NCBI GenBank assembly: GCA_964566925.1
Contig: CAZMIZ010000004.1
Span: 35,951-99,950, forward strand
Source of the DNA: an uncultured Gammaproteobacteria bacterium
Lineage (GTDB): Bacteria; Patescibacteriota; Microgenomatia; PFEM01; DATLAM01
Length of the DNA: 64,000 nucleotides
Direction of reading: 5' to 3'
Part shown: positions 12,531-62,548 of the stretch, one piece after another
How positions within the stretch are numbered: the stretch's first letter is position 1
How the letters are laid out: each line of letters begins with the position of its first letter
The notes under the pieces: generated by a model
Told to the model about the DNA's origin: nothing
What the model saw: only the letters and a program-made list of their open reading frames with translations
The model's database searches: none
Position numbers and translations under genes: made by a program

Positions 12531-13255
12531 ATAAAAATCTTTGATTTCACTCCCAACGGCCGCAAAAGATATTTAAATAAAGTCAAAATTGTCATTAAGC
12601 CATAGCGAACTGACCGGACGAAGTTGATTGAAGAAGCTTCTGGAAAATAGCGCACCGGGACAGGGATCTCGCCAATGCTGAATCCGGCGGCCACCGCCGA
12701 AATTAAAATCTCCTGATCAAAAACAAAGTCATTAGAGAACTGCTGAAAAGGGAGGGTTCGTAAAACTTCACTCTTAAAGGCTCGAAAACCAGTATGGTAT
12801 TCAGAAAGGTTAAGACCTAAAACAATATTTTCCAAAATCGTTAAAAACCGATTAGAAAGATATTTATAAAATGGCATCCCCCCTTCAAGAGCTTCTTTTC
12901 GACTTCTAATCCGACTGCCTAGCATAATCTCAAACCGCCCATCAAGAAGAGGTTTAACCAAATCAGCCGTCAAGGTAGCGTCATATTGGTAATCTGGATG
13001 AATCATCACCACAATGTCCGGCTTTGTCTTTAACGCTTCCCAATAGCAAGTCTTTTGATTGCCACCATAACCCAAATTGGTTGGGTGAACAAAGACCTTC
13101 AGGCCCAGCTTTTTGGCGATCTTCACCGTCTTGTCCTGACTCTGGTCATCAACTAAGATTACCTCTTCTGCTAATCCTTGGGGAATATCGTGATAGGTCT
13201 TCTCCAGGGTTTTAGCCGCGTTATAGGCAGGCATGATAACCACTATTTTTTCCAT
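12527..13255 (-). CDS. GT2 polyprenol-phosphate sugar synthase-like (Dpm1/GtrB catalytic-domain type)
   Basis: IVVIMPAYNAAKTLEKTYHDIP...VILVDDQSQDKT...HPDYQYD. 242 aa, soluble. Confidence 0.7.
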   Translation of the reverse strand: MEKIVVIMPAYNAAKTLEKTYHDIPQGLAEEVILVDDQSQDKTVKIAKKLGLKVFVHPTNLGYGGNQKTCYWEALKTKPDIVVMIHPDYQYDATLTADLVKPLLDGRFEIMLGSRIRSRKEALEGGMPFYKYLSNRFLTILENIVLGLNLSEYHTGFRAFKSEVLRTLPFQQFSNDFVFDQEILISAVAAGFSIGEIPVPVRYFPEASSINFVRSVRYGLMTILTLFKYLLRPLGVKSKIFI

Positions 13256-31782: not shown

Positions 31783-33425
31783 CTCCTTTTGATCATTAGA
31801 CCGAGGATGGCTGTCAAACCAAGAAGAGAAACAAGGTCAGCTAAAAGCCTGATTGGTGTCTCCTTAAAAACCATCACTGCCTGATGAGCCCCGGGTTCAG
31901 CTTTTATTCTCATTACTCCTTTTTGATTCTGATAGTCTAAAGAGGTTTGGACACCATCAATCGTTGCTTTCCAGCCAGGGAAATAATGACTATTGATCTG
32001 GATTTCGGCTTCGGTTTCCGTCTCGAGATCAAAGTTAATCTTCTTAGAATCAAAAACTAGATTTTCAATCGTTCCTCTGCCGGAAACAATTTCCACCTTT
32101 TCTTCGGCCCGAACCAGAGGCGGCTCCTCAACCCAAATTGGCAAATATTCATTGGCAACCGTGGTTGTGCCTTCGTTAGTCACATAATAATCTTCTCCTC
32201 GGTCAACAAAGTATTCCGGGTGAGTGTAACCATAATTTAGGAAAATCAAAAAGATCACACCTATGATCACCACCCAGGCCCTCAAACGAGGTCTAATTAA
32301 GTGGACCAAGGCCCCTATTAAAACTGCCGAAGCAAAGGTGGTTAAACCCAGAAGTCGCCAAGGAAATTGAATTAAATTATAAATTGGCAGAAGACGCCAA
32401 ACCCAAGAAGAAGCCCCTAACATTAAAAAGAAAGAAACAAGAGCAACCAAGAGAAAGCAAAAGGTTTGAAAATTTTTCTTTAAATGTTCTTTTCTTTTAG
32501 CCGCCTTAATTAAACTTAAGCCGAAGATCAGAGCACCGACGAAAAAGACAATTAAATTGATTACCCCCAACTGGAAGGAAAGCGTGTCTTGATCGGAAAG
32601 CGGCAGAGAAGGACCGTATCCCCAGCCAGGAACAATCAGTTGGCGAAGGGTAGGAAAGTGGAGAAAGAAATTGCTGACCGTCGCTTGATCAAAAAAAACA
32701 AATTGTTTGTCATATAAGGCTGGCAGCCAGAAAAAGCAAGAGAGCATCAAACCAAGAAAGAAAATAACCAGTTGCCGCCCAAAAACCTTGGTCTGACGGA
32801 AAAGCAACCAGCGAAAAACAACCCAACCGCCAAAAACTAAACTGAAAAGCATCGCCATCGTATTATGCGAACTAATCAGGCCAGCAAAAGCTATCGCCCC
32901 CAGGGCCAGATAATACTTATTCCATTTTTTAACCAACTTCGTGGCCGACCAGAAAATCAAGGGCGGGAAAATAAAGGCCACCGCTTCTCCTAGCGAACCC
33001 CGAACATAAACATCTAAAAAACGATAAGGAGTGTAAATATAAAGAAGGGCACTCGCCATTCCGGCCCATTCTCCCCAATCCTCCCGAAGCCAAAGATAAA
33101 TAAAGACTCCGGAAAGCACAAAGCTAAGGATAAAAACCAGCTTGATCGCGTTAACAAAGCTGCCCAAAAAAAGATAAAAAAATTCACCGAGATAAAGAGA
33201 AAAGGGATAAAGAAAGTTAAAAACCGGATAGCCATAACCATGATTAAGTCGAGCGGCCCAGCGCACGGGAATTTGCCCAGAAACCAGACTGCGATGAAAA
33301 TCAGAAAGCCGAATGACCATCCATTCCCCATCATGAGAAGGGAAAAAGCCGGGATGAAAAAGACTCCAAACTGCTGGCAGGGAAAGAATAAAGACCGCTA
33401 ACAGGAAAAGTATTTTCTTTTTCAT
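31779..33425 (-). CDS. Large polytopic membrane protein, family 'A' paralog 3
   Basis: Start MKKKILFLLAVF at 33425 makes an ATGA overlap with the upstream stop. Motif LFHPGFFPSHDGEWMVIRLSDFHRSLVSGQIPVRWAARLNHGYGYPVFNFLYP. Confidence 0.5.
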   Translation of the reverse strand: MKKKILFLLAVFILSLPAVWSLFHPGFFPSHDGEWMVIRLSDFHRSLVSGQIPVRWAARLNHGYGYPVFNFLYPFSLYLGEFFYLFLGSFVNAIKLVFILSFVLSGVFIYLWLREDWGEWAGMASALLYIYTPYRFLDVYVRGSLGEAVAFIFPPLIFWSATKLVKKWNKYYLALGAIAFAGLISSHNTMAMLFSLVFGGWVVFRWLLFRQTKVFGRQLVIFFLGLMLSCFFWLPALYDKQFVFFDQATVSNFFLHFPTLRQLIVPGWGYGPSLPLSDQDTLSFQLGVINLIVFFVGALIFGLSLIKAAKRKEHLKKNFQTFCFLLVALVSFFLMLGASSWVWRLLPIYNLIQFPWRLLGLTTFASAVLIGALVHLIRPRLRAWVVIIGVIFLIFLNYGYTHPEYFVDRGEDYYVTNEGTTTVANEYLPIWVEEPPLVRAEEKVEIVSGRGTIENLVFDSKKINFDLETETEAEIQINSHYFPGWKATIDGVQTSLDYQNQKGVMRIKAEPGAHQAVMVFKETPIRLLADLVSLLGLTAILGLMIKRR

Positions 33426-35833
33426 CTTCTCAACCTCCAGAAACTCAATAAACCTAAACCTAGAAGAGTGGCTGAAGTTATTCCAGAGACAATCGTTCCC
33501 CATTTAAATGAGTCTGGTTCATAGCTAAAAATTATTTGATGTTCTCCGGCGGGAACCAAAACCGCCCGAAAAGCATAATTAGCCCGATAAATTTTCTCCT
33601 GCCTGCCGTCCAAATAAGCCTGCCAACCCGGATAAAAGGCGTCAGAAAGAAAAAGCAGGGCATCACCATTATTTTCGGTTTTTATTTCCACTTGGTTCGG
33701 CGTATAAGCAACCATCTCTACTTTGCCCGGATTGCCTTTGACCAATTCTCTACCCGGAATCTCTTCTTCAAGAATAACCATGGCCGCCATATCGAAATCA
33801 GCGGCAAAGATCTTTTCAATTATCTCCTCGTCATCCTTAATCACCAAATAATCATCAACCAGAAAAGCTCGAGGAAGAGTTTCTAGGTTTTCATAAACCT
33901 TCCACTTCTCTTTCTGCCAAATAAGCTGATATCGGTCTTCAGGATATTTCCAGGGCTGAGGATCCCAGGATCCTTTGGCGGCATCATCTTTGTCTAAAAG
34001 ATACTTTATTCCCAAAAGATTAAAAATCTTTCTTCGATTCTCGCTGTCGTCTTTAGGGAAAACCGCATCCGAGCGCAAATATTCGTCAGGAATTTTTCCA
34101 GATTCAATAGCCGCCACCAGCTCAGCGTATCTGCCAATCCGCAGAGTATCATAACCCTCGGCCGCATAAATCTGATAAAAGGTGGCAAAGTTGTTATCGA
34201 AATGGGCTGTTTCCCACCCATAAAACCGATCAGTAACCAAAGATTTGTCTTTTAAGAATTCGATTATCGGATGATTAGGGAAAAAGAATTTTTCAGGCGA
34301 AAAAGGATTATATTTATGAACTCGATAAAAGAGGCTCAAAAAAAGAAAGCCAATGATTAATCCCCCGGCTAAATGGCGAAAATATTTAAATTTTTTAAGA
34401 TAATTCTGACTAAGAAAAAGGCCGCTAATGATCAGGAGTCCGAAAGTGGGGATAACCAAATTCCGTCGGGTAACAGCTAAATTACCAACCATTGAGGAAT
34501 TAGCCGTCAATATTTTAGGAGTCAGGAAGGCAAAACCCCAAAGAGAAAGAAAAATCAAAACGAAAGCAAAGCCTAAAATGCGGATCCTTTGATCTTTCGT
34601 CGCTTTTGTCACTTTTGGCAAAAAATGGTCGAAACCAAAAGCAGAGAGAAAAGAGAGGTTAAAAAATAGGAGGCATAAAATTCTAGCCGGATTGCCAGAC
34701 GAAAGAATCGGCAAATGGGCCACTTTCACTAAAAAGGAAACTGGACTCCTCACCGCTAAAAGAAGGAAAAAGAGGCTTGTCAAATAAAGAAACTTGAAAA
34801 GTTTATCCTTCCTCTTGAAAAAGAGGGGAATCAAGGCAAAAAACAAAGGGATGATTCCCAGAGAAGGAGTGAGATCGCCATAATCCTTTCCCCAGAAATT
34901 ATTGGCGGCCGGATTGCCAAAAAAATCAGGCGCAAAAAAGCTTAACAACTGACGATAAGGAATCAAAAAATAATCAAAGGTCCAGTGGGCAAAGCTTTGA
35001 GACAATGGAGCCTGTTGATAAAGCTCAATCGTGGGCAGAAGCTGAGCCGCCGCCAAAGCAAAACCCAAGCCTAAAAATAAAAGGAAAGAGGCTATCTGCC
35101 GGCCCTTTTTAGCTAAATGCCAAACCCGGAAAAGAAAATAAAGAAGGGCATAGAGGGCCACTAAAACAGCCGTTTGGGGGTAGCCGGCGAAAATGCTTAG
35201 GGCAATCGCTAAAGAAAGGGCCGGGTAAAAATATCTCTTTTTCTCAGCCAAAATTGATTCGATGAAATAAATGATCAAAGGCAGCCAAAGATAAGCATGA
35301 CCGATGATATCAATTTCAATCCACATAATGAAAAAACTTGAAGAGACAAAGGCGAGACTACCGAAAAGGCTGGCTGGTAGAGAAACTTTAAATTTTCGCA
35401 AAAGCAGAAACATAAAGACCATCGCCAGAAAAACTTGGAGAATGGTCAAGGCGGACCAGGCCATTAAAGGGGTTAAAATTAAGTAAAGAAGATTAAAGGG
35501 ATAAAGAATTCCTGACTGGTAGTTGGCTAAAAGCGGGCTGCCGGTAAAATTATAAGGATTCCATAGCGGTGGCTGGCCTCTTTTTATTTGCTCAAAAGCG
35601 AGGCCTTTCCAAGGCAATTGCATTCTGATGGAGTCAGAACCGATAAATTCTTTGTGGGTCGTCCAGGAATCATAACCGGTAAACCCTCCCCCGCTCCAAG
35701 GAAAGAAAAAAGAAACCAAAAGATTGCCTGCGTAGGGATAGAGCCCAAGAAAAACCTTATAAAAAAGGATCAGGGTTATTAAAAAAAGAAGAATGATCGG
35801 AAAAGCTTTCTTGAAGATAGCCAACCACTTCAT
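33422..35833 (-). CDS. YfhO-family polytopic membrane protein (paralog 3)
   Basis: IRMQLPWKGLAFEQIKRGQPPLWNPYNFTGSPLLANYQSGILYPFN. Confidence 0.8.
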   Translation of the reverse strand: MKWLAIFKKAFPIILLFLITLILFYKVFLGLYPYAGNLLVSFFFPWSGGGFTGYDSWTTHKEFIGSDSIRMQLPWKGLAFEQIKRGQPPLWNPYNFTGSPLLANYQSGILYPFNLLYLILTPLMAWSALTILQVFLAMVFMFLLLRKFKVSLPASLFGSLAFVSSSFFIMWIEIDIIGHAYLWLPLIIYFIESILAEKKRYFYPALSLAIALSIFAGYPQTAVLVALYALLYFLFRVWHLAKKGRQIASFLLFLGLGFALAAAQLLPTIELYQQAPLSQSFAHWTFDYFLIPYRQLLSFFAPDFFGNPAANNFWGKDYGDLTPSLGIIPLFFALIPLFFKRKDKLFKFLYLTSLFFLLLAVRSPVSFLVKVAHLPILSSGNPARILCLLFFNLSFLSAFGFDHFLPKVTKATKDQRIRILGFAFVLIFLSLWGFAFLTPKILTANSSMVGNLAVTRRNLVIPTFGLLIISGLFLSQNYLKKFKYFRHLAGGLIIGFLFLSLFYRVHKYNPFSPEKFFFPNHPIIEFLKDKSLVTDRFYGWETAHFDNNFATFYQIYAAEGYDTLRIGRYAELVAAIESGKIPDEYLRSDAVFPKDDSENRRKIFNLLGIKYLLDKDDAAKGSWDPQPWKYPEDRYQLIWQKEKWKVYENLETLPRAFLVDDYLVIKDDEEIIEKIFAADFDMAAMVILEEEIPGRELVKGNPGKVEMVAYTPNQVEIKTENNGDALLFLSDAFYPGWQAYLDGRQEKIYRANYAFRAVLVPAGEHQIIFSYEPDSFKWGTIVSGITSATLLGLGLLSFWRLRR

Positions 35834-35838
35834 GGGAT

Positions 35839-37335
35839 CTAAAGGACGACTTTATAAAAATAAAGAAAAGTCTTTTCGTTTCCCTTGCTGACCCTAAAAA
35901 CCAACTCTAAAGGCCAGTCGGTCGGTATTTCTTGAGTTTCGTTGAAGAGAAAATAGGCCGGCTTTTCTTTCGCTTTTTCTAAAACTTCCTCAGGAAATTT
36001 GTTTACCGGCCAATAACCTTTAATTTCCACATTTGGGTGATCCCAAAGATAAAGCTCTAATGAAGCCGGCATCAATCCAAAAGTGCCCTCGGTGGCAATA
36101 AAAATTGGTTTATCTTCTGCCTCTTCTCTGGCAAAAGTAACCACCTCATTAACTCCAAAGCCGGCCGGCCAGTTATCAATATACTGCCCTTTGTCAGCTT
36201 CAGGAATAGGAGCCGCTGTTGGTTCAAAAAGAAGCTTGAGGTCAGTGTATAGCGGCAGAACAAAAAACAAACTGCAAACAATCAAAAAAGTCTTTCGGTT
36301 TTTAACCTTGATGGCTAATTGTTCCAAAGAAGCCGCTGCCAAAATCAACAGAGGTAGGCTCATAAAAAGAATAAACCGGGGGTAGATGACTTTGCCAAAA
36401 AAGGCTAAACCGACAATGGGAATTAAAAACCAAGAGACTAAAAGAAGCTTTTCCTTTGGTCTCTCTCTAATCAACAGTAATGAGCCAGCGGCCAAAAGAA
36501 CAATCGGCCAGGTCAAATAAGTGGTCAGCCAATCAAATAATCCCTTGAGATTACCCCAGAAAAAAAGTAAAGGGTGATCCAGCCATTCCTTGATCGGAAA
36601 AACGAAAGTGGTGTCTTTCTGGGCAATCATGTGGAACCAGGGGGAAAGTCGGAGGATTGAATAGAAAATTTGAGAAATCACTACGGCCAAAACAGCTAAG
36701 CCTGCCCATCTTAATAACCTGGGCCATCTTTTTTTATTCTGCCAATCAAAAAGGATTAAGGTCAATGGAAAAAGATAGAGATTGAAAAAACCGGAAGTTT
36801 TGGTCAAAACCGCGCCACCTAAAACCCAGCCCAGAATTAAGGCCACATCTAACCGAAGGGTTTTAACCAGTAAAATCTCAAAGAGAAGGGAGAGGATGAA
36901 AAAGGTTCCCACCATCGCATCCATCAAGGCCATCCGATCGTAGAGCAAGTAAAAAGGAATGAACAAATAAAGAAGCAGGGCGAAAAGAGCCAGCCGTCTT
37001 TTTTTGAAGAGATTAAGGCTTAAAAACCAAAGGCCAACCAAGGAAACTAAACCTGTTCCCACCGAAACCAGGCGGCCAGCGATCAGGGGATCTTTAATCA
37101 CTTTCATAAAAATCATGGTCAGCCAAACGAAAAGAGGCTGTTTGCCGTCGGTTAAAGAAATAAAACGCCAAGAAGCGTCATTCTTGGCAATTTGAGCCCA
37201 GCGAAGATAAATCGCCTCATCAACAAAAATGGGAATAAGACTTAAGTTGATCAATCGAAAGAGGAAGAAAATTGCCAAAAGCAACAAACCGACAGCCAGT
37301 TCAACTCTAAATTTCTTAATTAACTTAACGATCAT
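35839..37335 (-). CDS. GT39/ArnT-like polytopic glycosyltransferase
   Basis: LFRLINLSLIPIFVDEAIYLRWAQ (the DEx motif of ArnT/PMT), then ~12 TM segments. Confidence 0.65.
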   Translation of the reverse strand: MIVKLIKKFRVELAVGLLLLAIFFLFRLINLSLIPIFVDEAIYLRWAQIAKNDASWRFISLTDGKQPLFVWLTMIFMKVIKDPLIAGRLVSVGTGLVSLVGLWFLSLNLFKKRRLALFALLLYLFIPFYLLYDRMALMDAMVGTFFILSLLFEILLVKTLRLDVALILGWVLGGAVLTKTSGFFNLYLFPLTLILFDWQNKKRWPRLLRWAGLAVLAVVISQIFYSILRLSPWFHMIAQKDTTFVFPIKEWLDHPLLFFWGNLKGLFDWLTTYLTWPIVLLAAGSLLLIRERPKEKLLLVSWFLIPIVGLAFFGKVIYPRFILFMSLPLLILAAASLEQLAIKVKNRKTFLIVCSLFFVLPLYTDLKLLFEPTAAPIPEADKGQYIDNWPAGFGVNEVVTFAREEAEDKPIFIATEGTFGLMPASLELYLWDHPNVEIKGYWPVNKFPEEVLEKAKEKPAYFLFNETQEIPTDWPLELVFRVSKGNEKTFLYFYKVVL

Positions 37336-38531: not shown

Positions 38532-39290
38532 CTAATCGTAGAGACCCCTTAAATCATTTATTTTAACCCGTAAAATTTCTTTAAACATTTCTTGAGATTC
38601 CCGGAAAAATTTCCTCTCTTTTCCCTCGGCAATATCTTGATCCTGCCACTGAATCGGCACCTCGGCAATTTTATAGCCTTTTTTCTGAGCAATAAACAGG
38701 AGTTCAACATCCCAAGCCCCTACTCGCCAACCCTTGACTTTTTTGCCTTCTTTAAAAATCAACAACTGCTTAAAAAGATCTTTGCCGACCTGGTTGCTGA
38801 AGGCTTTAAAGCCACACTGGGTGTCAGCGATTTCCCGAAGAAGCAAGGTTTGTCTGACCAGACGGAAAGCATTGGAAGCCACTTGCCGAAACAAGGAGTA
38901 GCCGGTTCGCCTCTGCCCTCTAGAGCCAATAACAACCGGAAAGCCTTTTTTGAAGAAGGGTAAAAGTTTTTCGATTTGGTTAATAGGCGTTGATTGATCC
39001 ATATCACTAAATAGAATAATCTTCCCTTTAGCCTCGATCACTCCGGCTTTAACAGCATAAGGTTTACCAGAGTGAGGATTTTTAAAAAGCTTAAATCGCG
39101 GATGATCTTTAATAAAACTCTCAATTATCTTTCGGCTTTTATCAGTCGAGCCGTCATCAGAAATAATTACTTCACTGGAATAACTTTGTTTTTCGAGATA
39201 ACCATCGATGCCTTCAAGAACGCCTCTTTTAAGGTTTTTCTCTTCGTTATAGCAAGGAATAACCACTGATAAAAATATATTTTTTTTCAT
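38532..39290 (-). CDS. GT2 Dpm1-like polyprenol-phosphate glycosyltransferase
   Basis: MKKNIFLSVVIPCYNEEKNL...VIISDDGSTDKS...FSDMDQSTP...IADTQCGFKAF. The internal start gives an ATGA overlap; the ORF extends to 39410. Confidence 0.75.
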   Translation of the reverse strand: MKKNIFLSVVIPCYNEEKNLKRGVLEGIDGYLEKQSYSSEVIISDDGSTDKSRKIIESFIKDHPRFKLFKNPHSGKPYAVKAGVIEAKGKIILFSDMDQSTPINQIEKLLPFFKKGFPVVIGSRGQRRTGYSLFRQVASNAFRLVRQTLLLREIADTQCGFKAFSNQVGKDLFKQLLIFKEGKKVKGWRVGAWDVELLFIAQKKGYKIAEVPIQWQDQDIAEGKERKFFRESQEMFKEILRVKINDLRGLYD

Positions 39291-40792
39291 TCTTCGGTAT
39301 AATGACTCAATTTCATCACCGTAATCCCTCCGGGAGCAGGCCAACTGCCAACAATCTCGGCTCGGCCAAACCCGGCAATTTCCCAAAGGGAATGACCAAG
39401 AGGCTGGCAATCAGAAACCTCGCAGACTATCAAAAGCTGATCGGTAACCGTTTTTCTTTCAGGATCATTCTGGGGGTTTTCAATCACCACCGGCCGATTT
39501 CCCCAAATTTCTAAAAAATAGCGATAGGCATGATCAGAATTCTGCCTGGTTATAAGGGCAAAGTTAAAAGGCTCCCCATTAGCCTCCCTCAGAATGATGG
39601 CGGCAATCTTTTTTGTCTGATCAAGCTGGCGATTGGGAGTATAACGGAAAGGAACTCCCTTGAGATTGACGGCCACCAGAACAACTAAGAAAAGACTGGC
39701 CGCCATTCGACCTATTGATGATTTCGAAGAAGAAGAAAAGGTAAGACCGGCGAGTAGAAACGGCAGAGGAAACATAAACCCCAAATAGTAATCATAAATT
39801 CCTCTTTGATAAAAACCAAAAAGGCCAACGCCAAAAATTAACCACAAACCAAAAAGAGAAAGGGCTAGAAACCTCTTCTTTTTCCTTGAGGTTATCCAAA
39901 AAAAGATAAAAGTAGCGAGGGTAACCACCAAGGTTATTTGGGCAATGAAAACATAATTGTTGGTCATCAGGCGATTAAAAAGGCGAAAAAGAACATCGCT
40001 AATGGTTGGCCAAAACTGATCCGCCAAAAAACCTGTTTCTTCGCCGTAAAGAAAAAACTGGAAAAAGGTTTTAAAGTTGGGAAATTGATGGCGAAATTCA
40101 AATAAAAGAAAAGGAGACCAGCCGACCAAGAATCCTAGAATGCCTAGAAAATAATATTTTAGATTCTCAATCTTTCGGGTAAAAATCAGGAGATAAAGAA
40201 CAATTACCGGCACCAAAAAGGTGGCCAGATAGTGAAGCTGAAAGGCAATTCCCATTAAGAGACCCACCCCTCCCAGAAGTTTTAATTTTTTCCGAGCAAC
40301 CACCAGCCAAAGAAGATAAAGAGTTAAGAGACAGAAGAAAGGCATCAGGTTAGGATTCCACGAAGAACGGGAATAAGCAAGAATCACCGGCGGCAGAGCA
40401 TAAAGGCCAGCTGCCACTAAGCCTGTCAAGGGATTGAAAAAATCACGACCCACTTTCCAAACTAGGAAAACAGTCGCCACCCCAAAAAGAGCGACCATCA
40501 CCGCCGGCCCTACCGGATCAAGACGGAAAAGCCATAGAAAAGGAAGCATAAAATAGTAATAAATCGGTCCCAAGAAAAAACCGCCCACGCTGGCTGTCGG
40601 ACCAAGAAGAGTCAATTTATGGTCAACCAGAATTCTTTTAACCACTAAAACGTCCCGGCCCTCATCACCCAAAAAAGTCATGTAATCGGCAATCCGATAA
40701 AGGCGCAAAAAGGCAGCCACTCCCAAAATAGCTAACAAAATTGTTGCTTCAAGCTTGTTCTTTTTAAGCCAGCTAATTAATTTTTCCCTCAT
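39287..40792 (-). CDS. GT39/GT83 ArnT-like polytopic glycosyltransferase
   Basis: LRLYRIADYMTFLGDEGRDVLVVKRILVDHKLTLLGPTASVGGFFLGPIYYY. Confidence 0.6.
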   Translation of the reverse strand: MREKLISWLKKNKLEATILLAILGVAAFLRLYRIADYMTFLGDEGRDVLVVKRILVDHKLTLLGPTASVGGFFLGPIYYYFMLPFLWLFRLDPVGPAVMVALFGVATVFLVWKVGRDFFNPLTGLVAAGLYALPPVILAYSRSSWNPNLMPFFCLLTLYLLWLVVARKKLKLLGGVGLLMGIAFQLHYLATFLVPVIVLYLLIFTRKIENLKYYFLGILGFLVGWSPFLLFEFRHQFPNFKTFFQFFLYGEETGFLADQFWPTISDVLFRLFNRLMTNNYVFIAQITLVVTLATFIFFWITSRKKKRFLALSLFGLWLIFGVGLFGFYQRGIYDYYLGFMFPLPFLLAGLTFSSSSKSSIGRMAASLFLVVLVAVNLKGVPFRYTPNRQLDQTKKIAAIILREANGEPFNFALITRQNSDHAYRYFLEIWGNRPVVIENPQNDPERKTVTDQLLIVCEVSDCQPLGHSLWEIAGFGRAEIVGSWPAPGGITVMKLSHYTEE

Positions 40793-54285: not shown

Positions 54286-55209
54286 TTATAAAATGGCTCC
54301 TTGCTGGGTTAAAAGAGCGGCTAAAAGCAAAGTGCCAATTAAGGCGAGATGAGCTAAATTCCGCCCTGCTAGCCGGACGACCTTCTTACGGTGGACTAAA
54401 ACCAGATCAAAAATAAGCGCCCCAAAAAGGACCCCCATAACCAAAATTGCCAAAGTCTTAGTTAGGAAAAAAGGGCTGAAAAGGGGTGGAGTCGATCTTT
54501 CCTCACCGGTAGATTGATTGAGAGCGGCTACCAATTCTTCTTCAACCGCCGAAGCTTCTCCAAGCCTGCTAACCGGCGATTCAACCGTTTCTGGAGGAGA
54601 GGTTTGAGAATAGTTCTGGACGACGGGAGCCGGAGCGGGAGTCGGTGTTCCAAAAAGCTGAACGACTAAAGTCGTCTCTATTCCTTGTAAGGTTCCGTCC
54701 ACCACCGCCAAGCCAATCTCTTCATAATGACCATTCAAGAGATTGTCTTTATGAGACGGGGAAGCCATCCAGGCCTGAACTACCTCTTCAGGGGTATAAA
54801 AATCTCGGGCCAAGTTTTCACCGGCATAAAGGTAACTATAGCCGGCTTGCTGGAAAAAGAACCAAGGATTCCGTCCCGAAGGAGAATTATGCGCCCAGTA
54901 ATCCAAGGCAAACATATCCCCGGCCTTGGCTAAGGCGGCTTGGTTTAAAGTTTGATTAATCTCTAAGGGTGCCAAACCATTTTCTAATCGTTTTTGATTG
55001 GTTAACTCAATCACCCGCTCAGGCGTAATTGCTGAAGCAAAACCAAGAACATGAGGTGAAACAAGAATAAAAAAGTTTAATCCAAATTGGCCAACCAAGA
55101 ACAAAGCCACTAAAACCGATAAAGAAGCAGGGTGAAGAATCTTAGCTTTGTAGTTATTACCCTGATGGGGAATGAAAAAATGGTGGCACCATTTGAGCAG
55201 GTTTTCCAT
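54286..55209 (-). CDS. CAP/SCP (PR-1-like, YkwD-type) domain membrane protein
   Basis: ELTNQKRLENGLAPLEINQTLNQAALAKAGDMFALDYWAHNSPSGRNPW...GENLARDF...SPSHKDNLLNGHYEEIGLAV, with N- and C-terminal TM segments. Confidence 0.8.
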   Translation of the reverse strand: MENLLKWCHHFFIPHQGNNYKAKILHPASLSVLVALFLVGQFGLNFFILVSPHVLGFASAITPERVIELTNQKRLENGLAPLEINQTLNQAALAKAGDMFALDYWAHNSPSGRNPWFFFQQAGYSYLYAGENLARDFYTPEEVVQAWMASPSHKDNLLNGHYEEIGLAVVDGTLQGIETTLVVQLFGTPTPAPAPVVQNYSQTSPPETVESPVSRLGEASAVEEELVAALNQSTGEERSTPPLFSPFFLTKTLAILVMGVLFGALIFDLVLVHRKKVVRLAGRNLAHLALIGTLLLAALLTQQGAIL

Positions 55210-55280
55210 TTTGAGTGTTAACGAAAAACAAGGTTCTTGCCAAAGGCAAGGTTCTTATCAGTTTTCATGATAGCACTACT

Positions 55281-55850
55281 TCATTCTGGTTGCAATCTAG
55301 CTCTCACCACATAGCGTTGGGAATCCCAAAAACCAGTGCAAGTATAGAGAGTTAAGATGGCTTCTTTGGTGGGAGACAAGATCTCGACGAAATCAGGGGA
55401 AACTGTTTTAGTTTCCGTTAGTTGGTAAACAAATTCCTCTCCTTTTTTATTAAAAATTTTAATCTCAACTCCCTTTTCCAGCCACCTGATTGGCCCAAAA
55501 AGATTATTTTTATTGTGGCCGTAAATAACCGTATTTCCTTCTCTCCCAGGAATACCGGAGCCAAGAAGATAAGAAACGCCTTCGTCGGCAACTTGCCACT
55601 GATCATTGGTTACTTCGGCCAAAAAAACAGGCAAATCAATCCCTACCTGGGGAATTACAACTCTTTCCGGTAAATCCTCTTCTTTAACCTCGGTTTGGGT
55701 TTCAGGAAAACTGGCAAAGGAAAGGCTGTTCTCCTGGAATTGAGAGGCTTTTTGCCAAAGAAAAGCTAAAATTAAAAAAGAAAAACCAAGAAAAAAGAGG
55801 ATTAAGCCGATCTTTTGACGGGAAGAAGCCTTAAGCCAACACCGGTGCAT
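55281..55850 (-). CDS. Sortase (class E-like transpeptidase)
   Basis: N-terminal TM, His in NTVIYGHN, and the TLxTC motif LTLYTCTG with a downstream Arg. 49-nt overlap with the upstream substrate gene. Confidence 0.8.
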   Translation of the reverse strand: MHRCWLKASSRQKIGLILFFLGFSFLILAFLWQKASQFQENSLSFASFPETQTEVKEEDLPERVVIPQVGIDLPVFLAEVTNDQWQVADEGVSYLLGSGIPGREGNTVIYGHNKNNLFGPIRWLEKGVEIKIFNKKGEEFVYQLTETKTVSPDFVEILSPTKEAILTLYTCTGFWDSQRYVVRARLQPE

Positions 55851-56674
55851 ACACTACCCATTATAAACAAAAGGTAAAAAAGATTCTCGGCTAAACTGCC
55901 TGTGTCTGCTAAAGTGGTCGCTCCTAAGACCTGACCTCTTCCTAAAACTTGACCAGTACAAATTTCATTGGAAGGATCACTCGGAGCACAATCATTAACC
56001 GCCCGAACAATAAAGCAATAATCAGATCCCAAATCTAAACCGCCTACAGAATAAGCGGTAACCTTGCCAGTATTATCAACCCCATAAAGATAACTACCTG
56101 AAGAAAAACCATAGGAAATCTGGTAGTGGGTGGCTGGTTCAACGGCCGTCCAACTTAAATCAGCACTGCTCCCACTTTTAATGGCACTCAAAAGAGTTGG
56201 CGCTGACGGAATGGTGGCCCCACAAACAAAAGGTTCACCTGGTCCGCCGGTACCCCCATTATCACCGCCATCGCCACCGTCCCCGCCGTTACTGGGGGGA
56301 GTGGTGGGAGTCGGAGTTGGAGTCAAGGTTGAGGTTGGGGTGGGGGTTTCTCCTGAACAGTCGCAGTCTGTTTCTTCCCAACAAGCCGGATTCCGACAAA
56401 CCAGCCTACCATCTATCTCATATTCGTTTAAATCTCCTAAGCAGAATGATGGACAACCACCACACTCACAAGGAGTCTGATCACATCCACCACAATCTTG
56501 ACAATCTGGACAATCTGGACAAGAGCATTCTCCACAATCCTCACAAATTGAACCACAACCACTAGGACAAACCCCGTCTTGAATGGCTAAGGCTGCAGCG
56601 CTTGTCAAGAATAAAAGCGCCAGGAAAATGAAACCGATTTTAATTAGTCGCGGAGAAATTTTTTGTTTAAACAT
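55802..56674 (-). CDS. Secreted Cys-rich surface protein with Thr/Pro linker, Fn3-like domain and C-terminal LAxTG-type sorting signal
   Basis: Signal peptide; CPDCPDCQDCGGC-type Cys cluster; TPTPTSTLTPTPTPTT linker. C-terminus LADTGS + hydrophobic LFYLLFIMGSVCTGVGL + RLLPVKRSA. Confidence 0.6.
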   Translation of the reverse strand: MFKQKISPRLIKIGFIFLALLFLTSAAALAIQDGVCPSGCGSICEDCGECSCPDCPDCQDCGGCDQTPCECGGCPSFCLGDLNEYEIDGRLVCRNPACWEETDCDCSGETPTPTSTLTPTPTPTTPPSNGGDGGDGGDNGGTGGPGEPFVCGATIPSAPTLLSAIKSGSSADLSWTAVEPATHYQISYGFSSGSYLYGVDNTGKVTAYSVGGLDLGSDYCFIVRAVNDCAPSDPSNEICTGQVLGRGQVLGATTLADTGSLAENLFYLLFIMGSVCTGVGLRLLPVKRSA

Positions 56675-56731
56675 TCTATCGAGGCAGTTGGCCTATATTA
56701 TACACACCGAAACAAACTTGTCAAGTGAAAA

Positions 56732-58846
56732 CTAACTAAAGAAAGAAGCCAAACTCATTAAGAAGGAGCGAAAAGCCGCTGATCTGGCGCTAAGAAAGCC
56801 TCGGCTGGTTGCTAAAGCCCCTATTAGTTCTCTTCTTCTTCGGTATCCCTTAGTTGATAGGTAGGTGGCCAAGGAACCGAAAAGAATCACCCATAGTTTT
56901 TGTTCTTGGGTCATTCCCGCCGGGGCCGTTGTCACTCCTAAAGTACCGCCACCCCCAGCCGCTTCCACCTCTTGACTGGCTCCAGGAATCAAAGGTAAAG
57001 AACCACCGATCAGAAAAGGACTCTCTGATGAAGCCGAAATCAACTGATCATCTGGGCCAACGTAACCTGAAGCCACGGCTCGAGCTAGATATTCACCCGG
57101 GGGAGCATCTTGGGAAAGAACCAAGCCGGTAGTCACCTTAACGCCTTTACCGGCATCAAGATCACCTAAATCAAAAATCCCGCCACCCATATCAATTCCG
57201 TCCTTAATCAAATTAATCGCCAGCTTAGTATCATAAACTCGACCGGTTCCCGGATTTTTAACGACAACAAAGAAAGTAACGGTGTCGCCCGGAAGAACAT
57301 GAGTGCCCACATTATGACTCAAATTAACTTCCAGAAGTCCCCCTTCTTGGTGAAGCTCTAAACCTGAATCTTCATGAGCCGAAGTTGTCTCAATTGGGGA
57401 GTCAGGGTTATTTTCCGGATCAGTGGCAAAAAGACTGGCGCCACCAATATCCCCATCAAGAGAACCAAAGATATTAATAAAACCTAAAAAGCCAAACGAA
57501 CGAATAATTGAGGAATTAACAAAATTAATAATCGAAATCGCACTGTAGGCATCCCCAGTTTCAATCTCTGCTTCCCCACCTTCAATTGAATTCCCGCCGG
57601 TATTGGCAGTTGAGGAAACATTGTTGACCACACAGGCTTGATTATCAACCAAAACCACATCGCCACAGGTGGAACAACTACTATCACTATCAGTACTTGA
57701 ACTAGTGGAACTCAATAACAAATTGCCGCCTCCAGCTAAACCTTCCAGCTCATTCCAACCCAAAAAGTCTCCTAGCCATTGGCCAAAAGTATTAACCACC
57801 AAATGATAGAAAGTAACGTCAACCAAACTGGTATTAACTAAATTAACCAAATTAACCACGCTTTGGGCATTACCGGTAGTGATACTGGCGCTCTCGGTGC
57901 TCGTAATTGAGTTCTGGCCACTGATGGCTGAGGAATCAACCTGATTTTCAACCGTCGCCTCGTTTTCTATTTTTACGACCTCACCGCAGCAGTTATCTTC
58001 AGTCGAGAACTCAGGTAAAAGAATGTTTCCTTCAACCCCGCCAAAAATGTTAATCGTCACGATATGAACGGTGGAATCAATAAAGGTCGTATTCACCTTA
58101 TTAAGTAAGGAAACAATTGAAACGGCATCGCCGGTATTGATCACCGCTTCTTCAGCCCCTTCAATTGAGTTATCCCCGGTATTGGCTGAAGAAACAATCT
58201 CGTTAGAGAGATAGGCGAAATTCTGATTATTAATGACGGAAACATTAACCACCGGTTCTTGATTGTCATTTTGAATAAAAACGTTATTGGCAATTGCCAG
58301 GGGTGTCGTGGTTAAATCGATATCCCCACCCTGGGGAACAAAAATATTTAAAGTTTGGTACAAAACCTGGGAATTGACTTCCGTCGAATTGACTTCATTT
58401 TCCACTTCCACCACGGAAACGGCATCACCGGTTTCAATTACCGCCGGTGAAGGCGTGGGCGTCGGCGTCTCTTCAGGAAGGGTTTCGGTTTCTCCCGTCG
58501 TTTCTTCGGTGGCACTGGGAGTGGCTTCTTCAGTGGTTAAGGGATCAATCGTTGGAGTGGGCGTCGGTTCCTCAATTGAATTTTCACCACTGATCGCCGT
58601 TGAGTCAACTTCGTTGGTCACTTCGGCTTCGTTTTCAATTTCGGCGGTCGTCGCCTCTTCTTCAGTTTCCTCAGGTGGGTCGCAAGGCGGCAAAGAATCA
58701 CCAGATTCATCCGTGGTTTCCGTTGTCTGCACCTCTGGATCGTCTCCTGAACCAGCTTCTTCAGCTAAAACGGCTCTAAAGCCCAGCTGACCCACGGCCA
58801 GTAAGAAAATGATCCAGATTGCTAAACCTTTTTTAATTTTTTTCAT
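56732..58846 (-). CDS. Secreted 704-aa acidic repeat protein ('TGDNSI' repeat family), Thr/Pro-rich N-terminal region
   Basis: Signal peptide MKKIKKGLAIWIIFLLAVG. Four ~90-aa repeats with core N.V.S.A.TG.NSI.G....I.TGDA.S...L.N.VN(T/S). Confidence 0.6.
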   Translation of the reverse strand: MKKIKKGLAIWIIFLLAVGQLGFRAVLAEEAGSGDDPEVQTTETTDESGDSLPPCDPPEETEEEATTAEIENEAEVTNEVDSTAISGENSIEEPTPTPTIDPLTTEEATPSATEETTGETETLPEETPTPTPSPAVIETGDAVSVVEVENEVNSTEVNSQVLYQTLNIFVPQGGDIDLTTTPLAIANNVFIQNDNQEPVVNVSVINNQNFAYLSNEIVSSANTGDNSIEGAEEAVINTGDAVSIVSLLNKVNTTFIDSTVHIVTINIFGGVEGNILLPEFSTEDNCCGEVVKIENEATVENQVDSSAISGQNSITSTESASITTGNAQSVVNLVNLVNTSLVDVTFYHLVVNTFGQWLGDFLGWNELEGLAGGGNLLLSSTSSSTDSDSSCSTCGDVVLVDNQACVVNNVSSTANTGGNSIEGGEAEIETGDAYSAISIINFVNSSIIRSFGFLGFINIFGSLDGDIGGASLFATDPENNPDSPIETTSAHEDSGLELHQEGGLLEVNLSHNVGTHVLPGDTVTFFVVVKNPGTGRVYDTKLAINLIKDGIDMGGGIFDLGDLDAGKGVKVTTGLVLSQDAPPGEYLARAVASGYVGPDDQLISASSESPFLIGGSLPLIPGASQEVEAAGGGGTLGVTTAPAGMTQEQKLWVILFGSLATYLSTKGYRRRRELIGALATSRGFLSARSAAFRSFLMSLASFFS

Positions 58847-58941: not shown

Positions 58942-59373
58942 TTACATGCCAATCAAACTATAATTGACAAAGCTAGTCACAACCGAGGTTGCGCTTGCAG
59001 CACCGGTGTTAATTGATCCGCTTCCGACCATTCCCCCGCTAATCATGTTGTCTCCACTGTCGGCTTTGGTCTTAACCCAGTTAGAAACCACCCCACCATT
59101 GTAGATATTCCCTCCGAAACAACCAACACATCCTCCGATCCCAGTGCTATTAACATCATTGCCCACATTGGCGTAGGCGCTAGCGGCACCAGTGCGAATT
59201 GAGCCGCCACAGACCCACATCCCGCCAATCATGTTGTCTCCACTGTCGGCTTTGGTCCGAACACTATTGGAAACAAGACCATAATTGTGAATGTTCCACA
59301 TACCCATGGCTGGGCCAGCAACGGAAAGAAGCATTAAGCCTGCGGCACCGAACGCAATTGCTTTTTTAACCAT
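58942..59373 (-). CDS. Small secreted protein with 2 copies of the same TGDN repeat
   Basis: Signal peptide. VSNSVRTKADSGDNMIGG...IRTGAASAYANVGNDVNST is duplicated. Confidence 0.55.
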   Translation of the reverse strand: MVKKAIAFGAAGLMLLSVAGPAMGMWNIHNYGLVSNSVRTKADSGDNMIGGMWVCGGSIRTGAASAYANVGNDVNSTGIGGCVGCFGGNIYNGGVVSNWVKTKADSGDNMISGGMVGSGSINTGAASATSVVTSFVNYSLIGM

Positions 59374-59603: not shown

Positions 59604-59990
59604 TTAAGGCGAAAACCAGAAAAATCCTATAATTTCTGAAAAAAGACGGCTGACAAAATCCAATAGTTTTTTTCTAAAAACCTCTATTGATTGGGAAGCC
59701 TTTTCCTGAGATTCTTCATTTGGCTGATCAGGAGAAACCGAGGTAACCACCAATGAACCTTCTGGGCTGGATTCAACTTTAACCTCCCCATCCTCCACTT
59801 CCACTTTAATCGTGCCTGGACTGGTGCTTTCCACGTGAGTCGTTTCTCCATTGACAACATTGGTGATTTCCGTTTGGGCAGAAGCATTATCGCCAGAAAC
59901 TTCGTTAATCACCTCTGTTTCTACTTTAGCTGAGGCCAGATTGGAAATAATCAGGGGAAAGAAAACAAAACTTAGAAAAACCCTTCTCAT
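59604..59990 (-). CDS. Small secreted protein, one degenerate copy of the repeat
   Basis: Signal peptide. INEVSGDNASAQTEITNVVNGETTHV. Confidence 0.45.
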   Translation of the reverse strand: MRRVFLSFVFFPLIISNLASAKVETEVINEVSGDNASAQTEITNVVNGETTHVESTSPGTIKVEVEDGEVKVESSPEGSLVVTSVSPDQPNEESQEKASQSIEVFRKKLLDFVSRLFSEIIGFFWFSP

Positions 59991-60088: not shown

Positions 60089-62548
60089 ATGGAAACCTTT
60101 TCTGCCTATCTTTTTTGGCATTATGTCTTTGCGCCAAAGAAGCTTTTAAGGATCACAACCAATTTTTTCCTTTTCTTTTATTATTACTTCTCAGTCAGAA
60201 TTTTGGTCCGAACCTTCTTCTCTCCCTGGAAAAGGCAAACGATTAAAAGAGAAAGGAGGCTTAGTCTTTCTAACCTCCTCCAGGTTCTTTCTTTTAACCT
60301 TATCTCCCGAACGATTGGGGCCATTGTTCGAGGAATCGTTTTATTGGGCTGGTTCTGGAGTGAAGTCGTCGTCTTTTTCTTTTTTCTTTTCCTTTTCCCC
60401 GCCTGGATAATCATTCCGGGGTTCACCTCCCCTCTTTTCCTTTACTTGAGGAAGCCACCTGATCCTGCCTTAAAGTTAATTAAAAAGAGGGTTAGCGATC
60501 CAGAAAAAATCTTTCGGTTTCTGCTTAAAACCGAGATGGGCAAATTTCTTTTCTCTCGACTAGGCATTTTACCAGGGAAGTTCACCGACTCATTAACCAA
60601 AACCCCTCCCAAAGACCAACCCTTCCCCTTACCCAAAACCCCTTCCTCAACCCGCCTCTTCTATCTTTTGGCTAAAAACTGGTCACCTTTTAAAAAATTT
60701 CTTTTTGAAAAAGAATTGGACGAAAAAGACATCCTCACTGTTTGCCGTTGGTTTGAAAGGATTAAGAAAGAGGAACGACACCAGATTCGCTTCTGGGAGT
60801 CCGAAAATCTTTTAAGCATGAGGGGGATTGGCAAAGATTGGGCCTATGGTTACACCCTTGATTTGGATAAATACTCGGATGATTTAACCCAACCTTTGCC
60901 TTTTTCTCACCATCTGGTCGGCCGCGAAAAAGAAGTCGAACTGATCCAACAGGTTCTCTCCCGAGCCGAAGAAAACAACGTTTTGCTGGTTGGCCAACCG
61001 GGCATTGGCCGTCACACAATTATTTTAGAGTTGGCCAAAAAAGTGAAAGAAGGAAGAGTCCATCCTTCTTTAGCTCATAAACGAGTTCTCTCTTTAAATC
61101 TTAATCTCCTCTTGGGTTCTTCGGAATCACTGGTAAAGGCAAAAGGTCTTATTGAGACCGTTCTTCAAGAAGCCACCAAGGCCGGCAATGTCATCCTGGT
61201 CATTGACAGTTTTGACAAATTTGTTTCCAGTGGTTCTGGCCGAATCGACTTAACTGACCTTTTTAAAGAAAGTTCAACTGGAGCCAGGCTTCAAGTCATT
61301 GGCATTACCACCCCCGCTGCTTTCCAGAAATATATCTTCCCTAACCAGGAAATTATGAAAGCTTTTGAAAAGGTCGAGGCTGAACCACCCAGTCTCAAAG
61401 AGGCCCTGGTGATTCTCCAAGACACGACTCCTTTTTATGAGAAACGAAATAATGTTTTTGTTCTTCATCAAACCTTAACCGAGATCGTTACCAAGTCTGA
61501 CCAGTATGTGACCGAAATTCCCTTTCCGGAGAAAGCAATTGACCTTCTTGATGAGAGCTGCGTCTTTACCTCAACAAAAGCCAAAAAGCCTCTCGTCACC
61601 CCTAAGGAAGTTAATCAAGTTTTGGCGGAAAAAATCAAAATTCCTTTAGGCGATATTAAAAAAGAGGAGCAAGAAAAACTGAAACAGCTAGAAAGTCTCT
61701 TGCATAAAAGAATCGTTAACCAAGAAATAGCTGTCAGTCAAATTGCCAAAGCGATGCGTCGAGCTAGGCTAGGAATTGCCCAAAAAGACAAGCCAATTGG
61801 TACTTTCCTCTTTTTGGGCCCCACCGGGGTGGGTAAAACCGAAACCGCTAAAGCCTTAGCCGAAGCCTATTTTGGCCACGAAAAACGAATGATTCGTTTC
61901 GATATGAGCGAATATCAAGGCCAAGACGCGATCAAAAGAGTTCTTGGCAATCAAACGACTGAAGAACCAGGTTTAATCGCCTCGGCCATCCGGAAAAATC
62001 CTTTCTCTTTGCTTCTTTTGGATGAAATTGAAAAAGCCCACCCTGATATTCTTAATCTTTTTCTGGTTCTCCTTGATGAAGGTTTTTTCACTGACGCCTT
62101 TGGTAAAAAAATCGATTGTCGTAACCTGATTGTCATTGGCACTTCCAACGCTGGCAGTGAATTTATTCGGGAAGAACTTAACCGAGGGACTGATAAAAAC
62201 CAATTGCCAGCCAAAGTTTTAGACTTCGTTCAGAAAAAGGAAATCTTTTCTCCGGAATTTCTTAATCGTTTTGATGCGGTCGTTGTTTATGGGCCATTAA
62301 ATAAAGACCAATTAAAAAAGGTTGCCCAACTCCTTCTCCAAAGACTAAACCAGAGACTGGCCGAAAAAGATCTGAAGCTAAAAATTGATGATCAACTAAT
62401 TGAAAAAGTGGCTGAGTTAGGCTATAGTCCCACCCTTGGCGCCCGACCAATGAAACGAGTTATCCAAGACAAAATCGAGGATCAAATTGCCCAGCGAATC
62501 CTTAAAGGAGAATTAAAAAGAGGCCAAAAAGTCGAAATCAACCTTTAA
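60089..62548 (+). CDS. ClpA/ClpB-like double-AAA+ ATPase with N-terminal transmembrane region; degenerate first nucleotide-binding module
   Basis: D1: LVGREKEVELIQQVLSRAEENNVLLVGQPGIGRHTI (Walker A K->R) and VILVIDSFD (Walker B DE->DS). D2 intact: FLGPTGVGKTE and LLLLDEIEKAH. TM segments at ~aa 70-115. Confidence 0.75.
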   Translation: METFSAYLFWHYVFAPKKLLRITTNFFLFFYYYFSVRILVRTFFSPWKRQTIKRERRLSLSNLLQVLSFNLISRTIGAIVRGIVLLGWFWSEVVVFFFFLFLFPAWIIIPGFTSPLFLYLRKPPDPALKLIKKRVSDPEKIFRFLLKTEMGKFLFSRLGILPGKFTDSLTKTPPKDQPFPLPKTPSSTRLFYLLAKNWSPFKKFLFEKELDEKDILTVCRWFERIKKEERHQIRFWESENLLSMRGIGKDWAYGYTLDLDKYSDDLTQPLPFSHHLVGREKEVELIQQVLSRAEENNVLLVGQPGIGRHTIILELAKKVKEGRVHPSLAHKRVLSLNLNLLLGSSESLVKAKGLIETVLQEATKAGNVILVIDSFDKFVSSGSGRIDLTDLFKESSTGARLQVIGITTPAAFQKYIFPNQEIMKAFEKVEAEPPSLKEALVILQDTTPFYEKRNNVFVLHQTLTEIVTKSDQYVTEIPFPEKAIDLLDESCVFTSTKAKKPLVTPKEVNQVLAEKIKIPLGDIKKEEQEKLKQLESLLHKRIVNQEIAVSQIAKAMRRARLGIAQKDKPIGTFLFLGPTGVGKTETAKALAEAYFGHEKRMIRFDMSEYQGQDAIKRVLGNQTTEEPGLIASAIRKNPFSLLLLDEIEKAHPDILNLFLVLLDEGFFTDAFGKKIDCRNLIVIGTSNAGSEFIREELNRGTDKNQLPAKVLDFVQKKEIFSPEFLNRFDAVVVYGPLNKDQLKKVAQLLLQRLNQRLAEKDLKLKIDDQLIEKVAELGYSPTLGARPMKRVIQDKIEDQIAQRILKGELKRGQKVEINL

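Follow-up and report, generated by a model that had tools for sequence, protein, structure and literature searches.

A sortase gene overlaps the gene of its putative substrate

Within a 64,000-nucleotide (nt) stretch of contig CAZMIZ010000004.1, hereafter the window, two overlapping genes on the minus strand encode a sortase and a secreted Fn3 protein that ends in a sorting signal. All within-genome scans described here were confined to this window. The features that define the pair are as follows.

55281-55850, minus strand: sortase gene, 189 residues, with an N-terminal membrane anchor
55802-56674, minus strand: substrate gene, encoding a secreted 290-residue Fn3 surface protein that ends in a sorting signal
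55802-55850, minus strand: overlap of the two genes, 49 nt
55515-55517, minus strand: catalytic His112 of the sortase
55338-55340, minus strand: catalytic Cys171 of the sortase
55314-55316, minus strand: catalytic Arg179 of the sortase

The overlap is real because the ATG at position 55850 is the sole start codon ahead of the membrane helix of the sortase, and because sortase homologs of 186-193 residues align with the predicted protein over their full length, from residue 1. The window contains one sortase gene only, and the substrate is its only open reading frame with a sorting-signal-like C-terminus. The locus is a real two-gene unit from a bacterium belonging to the Candidate Phyla Radiation (CPR, Patescibacteria).

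An earlier note on this DNA, made from the letters alone, had described the 49-nt overlap, a sortase with a TLxTC motif, a His, and an Arg, and a substrate that ends in LADTG, a hydrophobic stretch, and RLLPVKRSA. Each of these elements is present: the overlap lies on the minus strand at the positions listed above, the catalytic residues are His112, Cys171 (in TLYTC), and Arg179, and LADTG precedes a hydrophobic stretch at residues 265-281 and the basic tail. The Cys-rich string that the note singled out, CPSGCGSICEDCGECSCPDCPDCQDCGGCDQTPCECGGCPSFC, was likewise found exactly, within an 18-Cys head of the substrate.

The enzyme belongs to the sortase superfamily

The enzyme scores 84.9 bits against the Pfam Sortase model PF04203 (E = 4.7e-24; cut-off 26.6) and 49.0 bits against the general sortase model TIGR01076 (cut-off 39.35). 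An alignment of 31 homologs shows no variation at His112 (in IYGHNK), Cys171 (in TLYTC), or Arg179. AlphaFold predicts an N-terminal helix spanning residues 10-41 followed by a β-barrel, with a predicted local distance difference test (pLDDT) score of 83.7, and the best 50 Foldseek matches of this model in the PDB are all sortases (E ~1e-10, Foldseek probability 1.0). These scores and the predicted fold place the enzyme in the sortase superfamily (peptidase C60), with a modeled eight-stranded β-barrel and an N-terminal membrane anchor.

One further element of the sortase lies just past its membrane helix.

55716-55724, minus strand: (I)LSF motif, sortase residues 43-45

The motif is nearly invariant; Phe45 is invariant in 31 sequences, and the motif is present in loci L041-L045 too. 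It occupies the position where class C enzymes have their lid, a region in which the model is weak (pLDDT ~57-62).

The sorting signal is an extended motif

The C-terminus of the substrate displays the following elements.

55898-55936, minus strand: extended recognition motif GQVLGATT-LADTG, residues 247-259
55898-55912, minus strand: LADTG, residues 255-259
55805-55882, minus strand: hydrophobic stop-transfer segment at residues 265-281, then the basic tail RLLPVKRSA at residues 282-290

In the AlphaFold model of the substrate, a helix spanning residues 261-283 follows the pentapeptide. Pentapeptide, helix, and basic tail make up a genuine tripartite architecture, in agreement with the proposal that this segment is a sorting signal. 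A [LMIV]-[A/G]-x-T-[G/D] tail with GQVLG[A/V][S/T]T ahead of it is found in 73 of 107 homologs, where the commonest pentapeptides are LGATG (28) and LADTG (14) and LPxTG does not occur.

Searching 1.84 billion representative proteins at E<=1e-3, and without regard to genomic context, with a profile built on the final 45 residues gave matches to at least 405 protein clusters, and the match is always C-terminal among the best 150 of the 405. An Fn3-family domain is present in only 25 of 136 new tail clusters, and the signal is instead attached to many different passenger domains. Across 134 clusters, the consensus reads G-Q-V-L-G-A-S-T-[M/L]-[A/G]-x-T-G-(S/A/T)-F-E-E-N-L, with Met (91) or Leu (43) before P3 and Ala (104), Gly (29), or Pro (1) at P3 itself. 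Between 27 and 36 residues follow the TG, with ~4 Lys or Arg within the last ten, and the VLGxxT element is duplicated in 38 of 136 tail clusters. The upstream octapeptide (GQVLGAST) is more conserved than the pentapeptide. The tail escapes PF00746, TIGR01167, and all other Pfam and NCBIfam models, even at E<=10. As judged from these alignments, the true signal is a predicted 13-residue motif, GQVLGAST-[M/L]-[A/G]-x-T-G, and LADTG is merely one variant of its pentapeptide.

The earlier note had also proposed a search for further LAxTG proteins in the genome; run over the window, it returned the substrate only. A 704-residue protein encoded upstream was considered as a second substrate and rejected: it has a TLGVTT-like stretch ahead of a membrane helix, but carries no xTG pentapeptide (the TG cleavage motif) and has a long cytoplasmic tail.

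Signal and sortase occur together across genomes

Scanning species-representative genomes with an alignment of the Fn3 domain plus tail yielded 34 loci, most of them labeled as Microgenomates (Amesbacteria, Woesebacteria, Shapirobacteria, Levybacteria, Roizmanbacteria, and Gottesmanbacteria). Linkage was counted over 38 Fn3 homologs from other genomes after removal of duplicates, comprising 13 tail-bearing and 25 tail-less proteins; one homolog whose signal is followed by a longer C-terminal extension (L011) was counted as tail-bearing. A sortase of the same family lies immediately downstream of 12 of the 13 tail-bearing genes, and the thirteenth is the first member of a tandem pair in which two tail-bearing Fn3 genes come before one sortase (L009). 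None of the 25 tail-less homologs has a sortase within 4 kb. The co-occurrence of tail and adjacent sortase in other genomes (Fisher p ~1e-7) places this arrangement far beyond chance.

The same linkage holds for substrates of other kinds. Each of the five non-Fn3 tail proteins that were looked up has its gene directly upstream of one for a same-family sortase (E 1e-61 to 1e-92), and the two genes overlap by 23-52 nt or are separated by a 6-nt gap. These five pairs reside in differing genomic neighborhoods, for example among ribosomal protein genes. Over all tail-bearing genes examined, 17 of 18 distinct genes sit immediately upstream of a sortase.

In three clusters (P0091, P0096, and P0099; L039:5001-6506), one of which is represented on five contigs, the Fn3 protein and the sortase are naturally fused. 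The fused polypeptides run from a signal peptide through a Cys/His head, a Thr/Pro linker, the Fn3 domain, and a GGxVLGAxTxLA(S/N)TAEV motif to the sortase domain. The His/Cys/Arg triad of the fused domains is intact, and the membrane segment between motif and enzyme is absent. The fusions may be self-processing secreted sortase-substrate proteins.

Many of the tail-less Fn3 homologs end in a multi-helix integral-membrane anchor with the motif (D/H)xxxHxWWxP(S/T)xxCxW, which we observed in L015, L017, L018, L023, L024, L035, and L037, and at L004:2753-5959. The exchange of signal for membrane anchor looks like an evolutionary swap between covalent and integral-membrane anchoring, and this replacement in sortase-less homologs fits an anchoring role of the signal. 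Because tail and sortase are adjacent in 12 of 13 Fn3 and 5 of 5 non-Fn3 cases, because the 25 tail-less homologs have no sortase nearby, and because natural fusions exist, there is a strong case that substrate and sortase form a private enzyme-substrate pair. The linkage in other genomes bears out the dedicated pair that had been suggested from the window, and the reading of the two genes as co-transcribed is supported.

Several contigs with the cassette carry deposited names such as 'Candidatus Bathyarchaeia archaeon' and 'uncultured Gammaproteobacteria bacterium' (L005, L007, L010, L016, L023, L026, L027, L032, and L034). They are probably mislabeled or mis-binned genomes.

The sortase falls outside the characterized classes

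From the LAxTG motif, the earlier note had assigned the sortase to class E. The NCBIfam class models, with class-level cut-offs of 140-166 bits, lead to a different view. The class C model NF033745 gives the nominally best class score, at 49.1 bits against a cut-off of 160, followed by class E (NF033747; 46.1 against 160), SrtD (NF058671; 44.5 against 140), and class D (NF033746; 43.6 against 165). The class F (37 bits) and GN (32 bits) scores are also far under their cut-offs, and no NCBIfam class A model was reported for the sortase at E<=0.01. The alignment to class references suggested in the note, carried out here through these class models, ends with every score below cut-off.

When PDB sequences were searched with a profile of the family, B. 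anthracis SrtA (2kw8, class A) came out on top with 67 bits (E 1e-17), tied at 67 bits with C. perfringens SrtD (4d70, class D). Class E structures follow below classes A, C, and D, with 42 bits for 5utt and ~28 bits for 5go5 and 5go6. The Foldseek matches of the sortase model do not tell classes A, C, and D apart.

Kattke et al. described two hallmarks of class E, a specificity Tyr in the β3/β4 loop and a long β6/β7 insertion (PMC5148588). The Tyr, Tyr229 in SrtE1, is equivalent to Ala104 of SaSrtA and Phe92 of CpSrtD, and the insertion measures ~21 residues relative to class A (PMC5148588). In a HMMER alignment to CpSrtD (4d70), in which GHF is paired with SYL, the corresponding residue of our enzyme is Leu95, an equivalence that is inexact, as it rests on sequence alignment within a loop. 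This position is Leu or Trp across the family, and a conserved Tyr or His lies one residue earlier, at position 94. The AlphaFold model places β6 at residues 139-150 and β7 at residues 164-172, leaving a loop of ~13 residues that is short relative to class E. The step from LAxTG to class E fails because the class E score, the aligned residue, and the β6/β7 loop all depart from that class.

Membership in class C, the pilus class, was also rejected: in addition to the score of 49.1 bits, the enzyme has no DP[FWY] lid motif and ends in ...RARLQPE, with no hydrophobic tail. Classes A and D were rejected by the class models, though the nearest PDB sequences belong to them. By class-model scores and profile ranking, the enzyme is set apart in what appears to be an unclassified Patescibacteria clade, whose nearest sequence is that of B. 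anthracis SrtA.

The substrate joins a variable head to a conserved Fn3 base

N-terminal to the sorting signal, the substrate is built from the following parts.

56585-56674, minus strand: Sec signal peptide, residues 1-30, with cleavage after AALA (between AALA and IQ) predicted by the AxA rule
56354-56578, minus strand: variable Cys-rich head, residues 33-107 (75 residues, 18 Cys)
56492-56522, minus strand: 9-nt tandem repeat, 3.4 copies, coding for (Pro-Asp-Cys)n in the head
56225-56353, minus strand: linker, first rich in Thr/Pro and then in Gly/Asp, residues 108-150, a candidate stalk for O-glycosylation
55952-56224, minus strand: conserved Fn3 domain, residues 151-241

AlphaFold predicts an N-terminal helix at residues 8-32. 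The CPDCPDCQDC stretch of the head is the product of the 9-nt tandem repeat, and searches of Pfam and NCBIfam with the head gave no match even at E<=10. Structure prediction, which the earlier note had recommended for the Cys-rich module, resolves a hairpin at residues 83-94; the rest of the head has a pLDDT of 41-54 and is not conserved. The head may be either of the two things that the note had proposed, a disulfide knot or a metal site. Close homologs that are 60-78% identical over the Fn3 domain and tail bear unrelated heads, ranging from a few Cys-Pro to whole β-rich domains, and the sub-module CRNPACxEExxCxC (residues ~80-106) recurs in only ~6 relatives. We therefore rejected the head as a conserved functional core; since the heads of homologs are unrelated, the conserved unit consists of stalk, Fn3 domain, and signal, on which the head is swappable.

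The Fn3 domain matches Pfam PF00041 over residues 157-236 (E 2.3e-7; 31.4 bits against a cut-off of 25) and is modeled with a pLDDT of 96-98. Its best Foldseek hits are all Fn3 domains, with target-normalized TM-scores of ~0.7-0.8. Both this domain and the Thr/Pro linker, which lies within residues 108-150, had been read from the letters correctly. Among 68 homologs, Cys151 and Cys229 are invariant, and positions 220 and 239 are both Cys in 54 and both non-Cys in 14, with no mixed cases (p 8e-15). From this pattern of conservation, the Fn3 domain probably has two disulfides, Cys151-Cys229 and Cys220-Cys239, which would call for oxidative folding outside the cell. The covariation fits the MdbA/VKOR oxidative folding machinery reported for CPR bacteria (PMC6744442).

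Expression signals and neighboring genes

The following expression signals flank the two genes.

56697-56724, minus strand: perfect σ70 consensus promoter, TTGACA-16 nt-TATAAT, matching 12 of 12 consensus positions
55236-55250, minus strand: small GC hairpin between the sortase stop codon and the next gene, a weak terminator-like element by consensus match only

The substrate ATG lies 22 nt downstream of the end of the promoter's -10 hexamer. Within the overlap, A-rich bases encode both the substrate tail LLPVKRSA and the basic N-terminus of the sortase, MHRCWLKASSRQK (ASSRQK), two basic segments that lie by necessity on the cytoplasmic side. The overlap measures 52-70 nt in the closest relatives and is shorter or absent in distant ones. 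Dual coding may explain the high conservation of the substrate tail (LPxKKxx) in the clade, and the arrangement suggests that substrate and sortase are translationally coupled.

Other genes for surface proteins adjoin the pair.

54286-55209, minus strand: CAP/YkwD-domain membrane protein, downstream of the sortase (Pfam CAP 2.7e-17)
56732-58846, minus strand: secreted protein of 704 residues, upstream
58942-59373, minus strand: secreted protein of 143 residues, upstream
59604-59990, minus strand: secreted protein of 128 residues, upstream

The CAP/YkwD protein has one N-terminal and two C-terminal membrane helices. Its gene lies downstream of the sortase gene at 9 of 14 distinct loci with a sortase (L002, L004, L005, L007, L008, L012, L014, L041, and L042) and is also found beside sortase-less Fn3 homologs (L015, L017, L018, L023, and L024), making this protein a possible third component of the surface island. 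None of the three upstream secreted proteins has a Pfam match. The 704- and 143-residue proteins share a repeat, (S/T)xAxxG(D/G)NxIxG ... TG(D/A)AxS ... N(x)VN(S/T), and the trio is syntenic with the Fn3-sortase pair in L001. In L001, the closest syntenic relative, the surface island has a second, distant sortase at its far end (positions 1311-1901; E 1e-12 to the family profile). At the corresponding place, the window carries a ClpB-like gene (60089-62548, plus strand).

A glycosylation super-cluster of ~50 kb adjoins the island on the minus strand (window positions 970-51000). Membrane glycosyltransferases of the GT-C type (PMT, YfhO, or related) number at least nine in it, and it also encodes ~10 GT2 and two GT4 enzymes, a Wzx-like flippase, UDP-glucose dehydrogenase, and RmlB/C/D. 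It makes up an unusually large portion of a small genome. The membrane-protein genes are listed below.

5590-7098, 6812-8434, 8431-10065, 35839-37335, and 39287-40792, minus strand: PMT/PMT_2
13243-14919, 28647-30374, and 31779-33503, minus strand: PTPS_related
10062-12530, 15820-18159, and 33422-35833, minus strand: YfhO
30364-31782, minus strand: DUF2079

That the surface protein is "possibly glycosylated", as had been suggested, gains circumstantial support from this cluster, many of whose members are PMT-like; O-glycosylation of the stalk has the same circumstantial support.

A model for anchoring of the substrate

The locus is probably a surface-display cassette of a Microgenomates-type Patescibacterium, bicistronic and with its two genes translationally coupled. 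The first gene would give rise to a protein exported by the Sec route and composed of a variable head, a Thr/Pro stalk, a disulfide-bonded Fn3 base, and the C-terminal signal, whose hydrophobic segment and basic tail would retain the substrate in the membrane. The N-terminal helix would tether the sortase and leave the catalytic domain (about residues 55-189) outside the cell, where the enzyme would recognize GQVLGATT-LADTG; the peptide GQVLGATTLADTGSLAE is the predicted substrate. By canonical sortase chemistry, cleavage is expected between Thr258 and Gly259 through the action of Cys171, His112, and Arg179, and the resulting thioacyl intermediate on Cys171 would be passed to an amine acceptor, most likely a peptidoglycan precursor. 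The wall would then carry the Fn3 base in covalent linkage, and the variable head would point away from the cell, in keeping with the surface-display role that the earlier note had given the substrate. The analysis shows the gene pair and its overlap, the catalytic residues, the fold, the architecture of the signal, the promoter, and the linkage of signal and sortase across the family; we infer the cleavage site, the acceptor, any glycans on the stalk, and a part for the head as an adhesin or in host contact.

Several considerations weigh against this model. Cleavage and wall attachment are carried over from established sortase chemistry, and the acceptor is likewise presumed for a group of bacteria whose envelopes are poorly characterized. 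The sortase fits no characterized class, and its specificity is therefore not readable from precedent. Our view spans 64 kb of the genome, and further substrates may lie elsewhere. Finally, 'adhesin' is a guess from architecture and variability, because the head has no confident structure or homolog.

Other functions for the pair can be envisioned. The Fn3 protein could be the wall- or membrane-proximal base, or the terminator, of a larger filament or S-layer made of the upstream repeat proteins, in which case the sortase would fix that base to the wall. Such a role would be akin to that of PamR, an FnIII protein proposed to tether the CPR Pam pilus, which sets a precedent for FnIII combined with a transmembrane anchor in CPR pili (preprint 10.64898/2026.03.03.709456). 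The synteny of the upstream repeat proteins with the pair recurs in L001, and in L002 and L004 genes for large surface proteins of the CLIPPER/DUF11 type come before the pair. The Pam operon, however, has no sortase and encodes two FnIII domains plus a donor strand, the likeness to Pam is drawn from its published description, and non-Fn3 cassettes in unrelated neighborhoods indicate that the cassette is independent of its upstream genes; we regard this function as unlikely. The acyl intermediate might also be resolved on something other than peptidoglycan, be it water, which would release the substrate, a glycopolymer or lipid, a different surface protein, or even the wall of a host. The adjoining glycan-synthesis cluster is large and may offer alternative acceptors, and the fused sortase domains, with no membrane anchor of their own between motif and enzyme, could act away from the membrane of the producer. 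Yet the enzyme and substrate of the window are both membrane-tethered, as in canonical wall sorting, and the membrane anchor that replaces the signal in sortase-less relatives favors retention over release, which makes a non-peptidoglycan acceptor quite improbable.

That the enzyme is a pilus-type, class C-like polymerase joining Fn3 subunits head to tail is very doubtful. Adjacent sortase and substrate genes are typical of pilus loci, two tandem tail-bearing Fn3 genes precede one sortase in L009, and class C gives the nominally best class score (49.1 bits), but this is far from the cut-off of 160 bits, and the enzyme has neither the DP[FWY] lid nor a C-terminal membrane helix. The substrate, moreover, is of Fn3 and not CnaA/CnaB pilin fold, and its two extracellular lysines are unconserved: position 166 is Lys in 16 and position 204 in 28 of 68 homologs, among which no column over residues 140-259 reaches 50% Lys. 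The least credible of these readings takes the sortase for a general housekeeping enzyme with dispersed substrates, so that its position next to one of them would be meaningless. The same tail does occur on at least 405 clusters with many passenger domains, the closest solved sequence is that of a housekeeping class A enzyme, and our view of this genome ends with the window. Against it stand the 17 of 18 tail-bearing genes located immediately upstream of a sortase, including all five picked blind to context, and the gene overlap and fusions also speak against meaningless adjacency. Anchoring by the sortase of the very substrate whose 3' end its gene overlaps is most likely.

Implications and relation to known sortase systems

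CPR/Patescibacteria presumably spend their lives attached to other cells, and how they build and decorate their surfaces is little known. Sortases are near-ubiquitous in Microgenomates (PMC6744442); in the literature we searched, CPR sortases receive passing mentions only, and no description of a GQVLGAST-type motif was found. The sortase-signal variant is, to that extent, undescribed, and the mechanism itself is expected to be ordinary. Patescibacteria might even possess a sortase class of their own, defined by a 13-residue signal and a single upstream 'slot' gene with swapped passenger heads, with fusions in some lineages, a proposal that we put forward only tentatively. If it is correct, the slot gene would be a modular display cassette for contact with a host or partner, often accompanied by a CAP-domain membrane protein, and some lineages would hold substrate and enzyme as one self-processing secreted polypeptide. 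Signal and enzyme family together would permit the prediction of surface proteins where LPXTG models find nothing, and would supply candidate variable-headed surface proteins for host contact. They might also furnish an orthogonal sortase-tag pair with non-proline, extended recognition for protein ligation.

The predicted signal shares with the LPXTG signal (PF00746, TIGR01167) a TG-ending pentapeptide, a hydrophobic core, and ~4 Lys or Arg at the very end, but it has no Pro, is bounded by the conserved flanks GQVLGAST and S-F-E-E-N-L, and often carries a duplicated VLGxxT. The class E or LAXTG system of S. coelicolor, in which SrtE1 and SrtE2 act on chaplins, resembles the present one in the Ala at P3, the tripartite signal, and the expected His/Cys/Arg chemistry (PMC5148588). 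It differs in that P3 here is Ala or Gly, P4 is Leu or Met, and eight conserved residues (GQVLGAST) precede the pentapeptide.

A precedent for a sortase that accepts Gly at P3 comes from the closest solved sequence, B. anthracis SrtA, which in vivo anchors BasJ, a protein with an LGATG signal (PMC3208642). SrtA is, however, a housekeeping enzyme with many dispersed and mostly LPXTG substrates, whereas the window cassette has an overlapping substrate gene and its signal has Pro at P3 in only 1 of 134 clusters. In genetic organization, the cassette resembles dedicated operons such as SrtB-IsdC (NPQTN) and B. anthracis SrtC-BasH/BasI (LPNTA), where a private enzyme sits beside one protein with a non-canonical signal. 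The 'class GN/marine' sortases (TIGR03784) are likewise single-target. The window sortase is distinguished from these by clade, motif, and phylum, scoring 44 bits against class D and 32 bits against GN models, and cassettes of its type are distinguished from the dedicated operons by the passenger domain upstream of the sortase, which is freely swapped between lineages.

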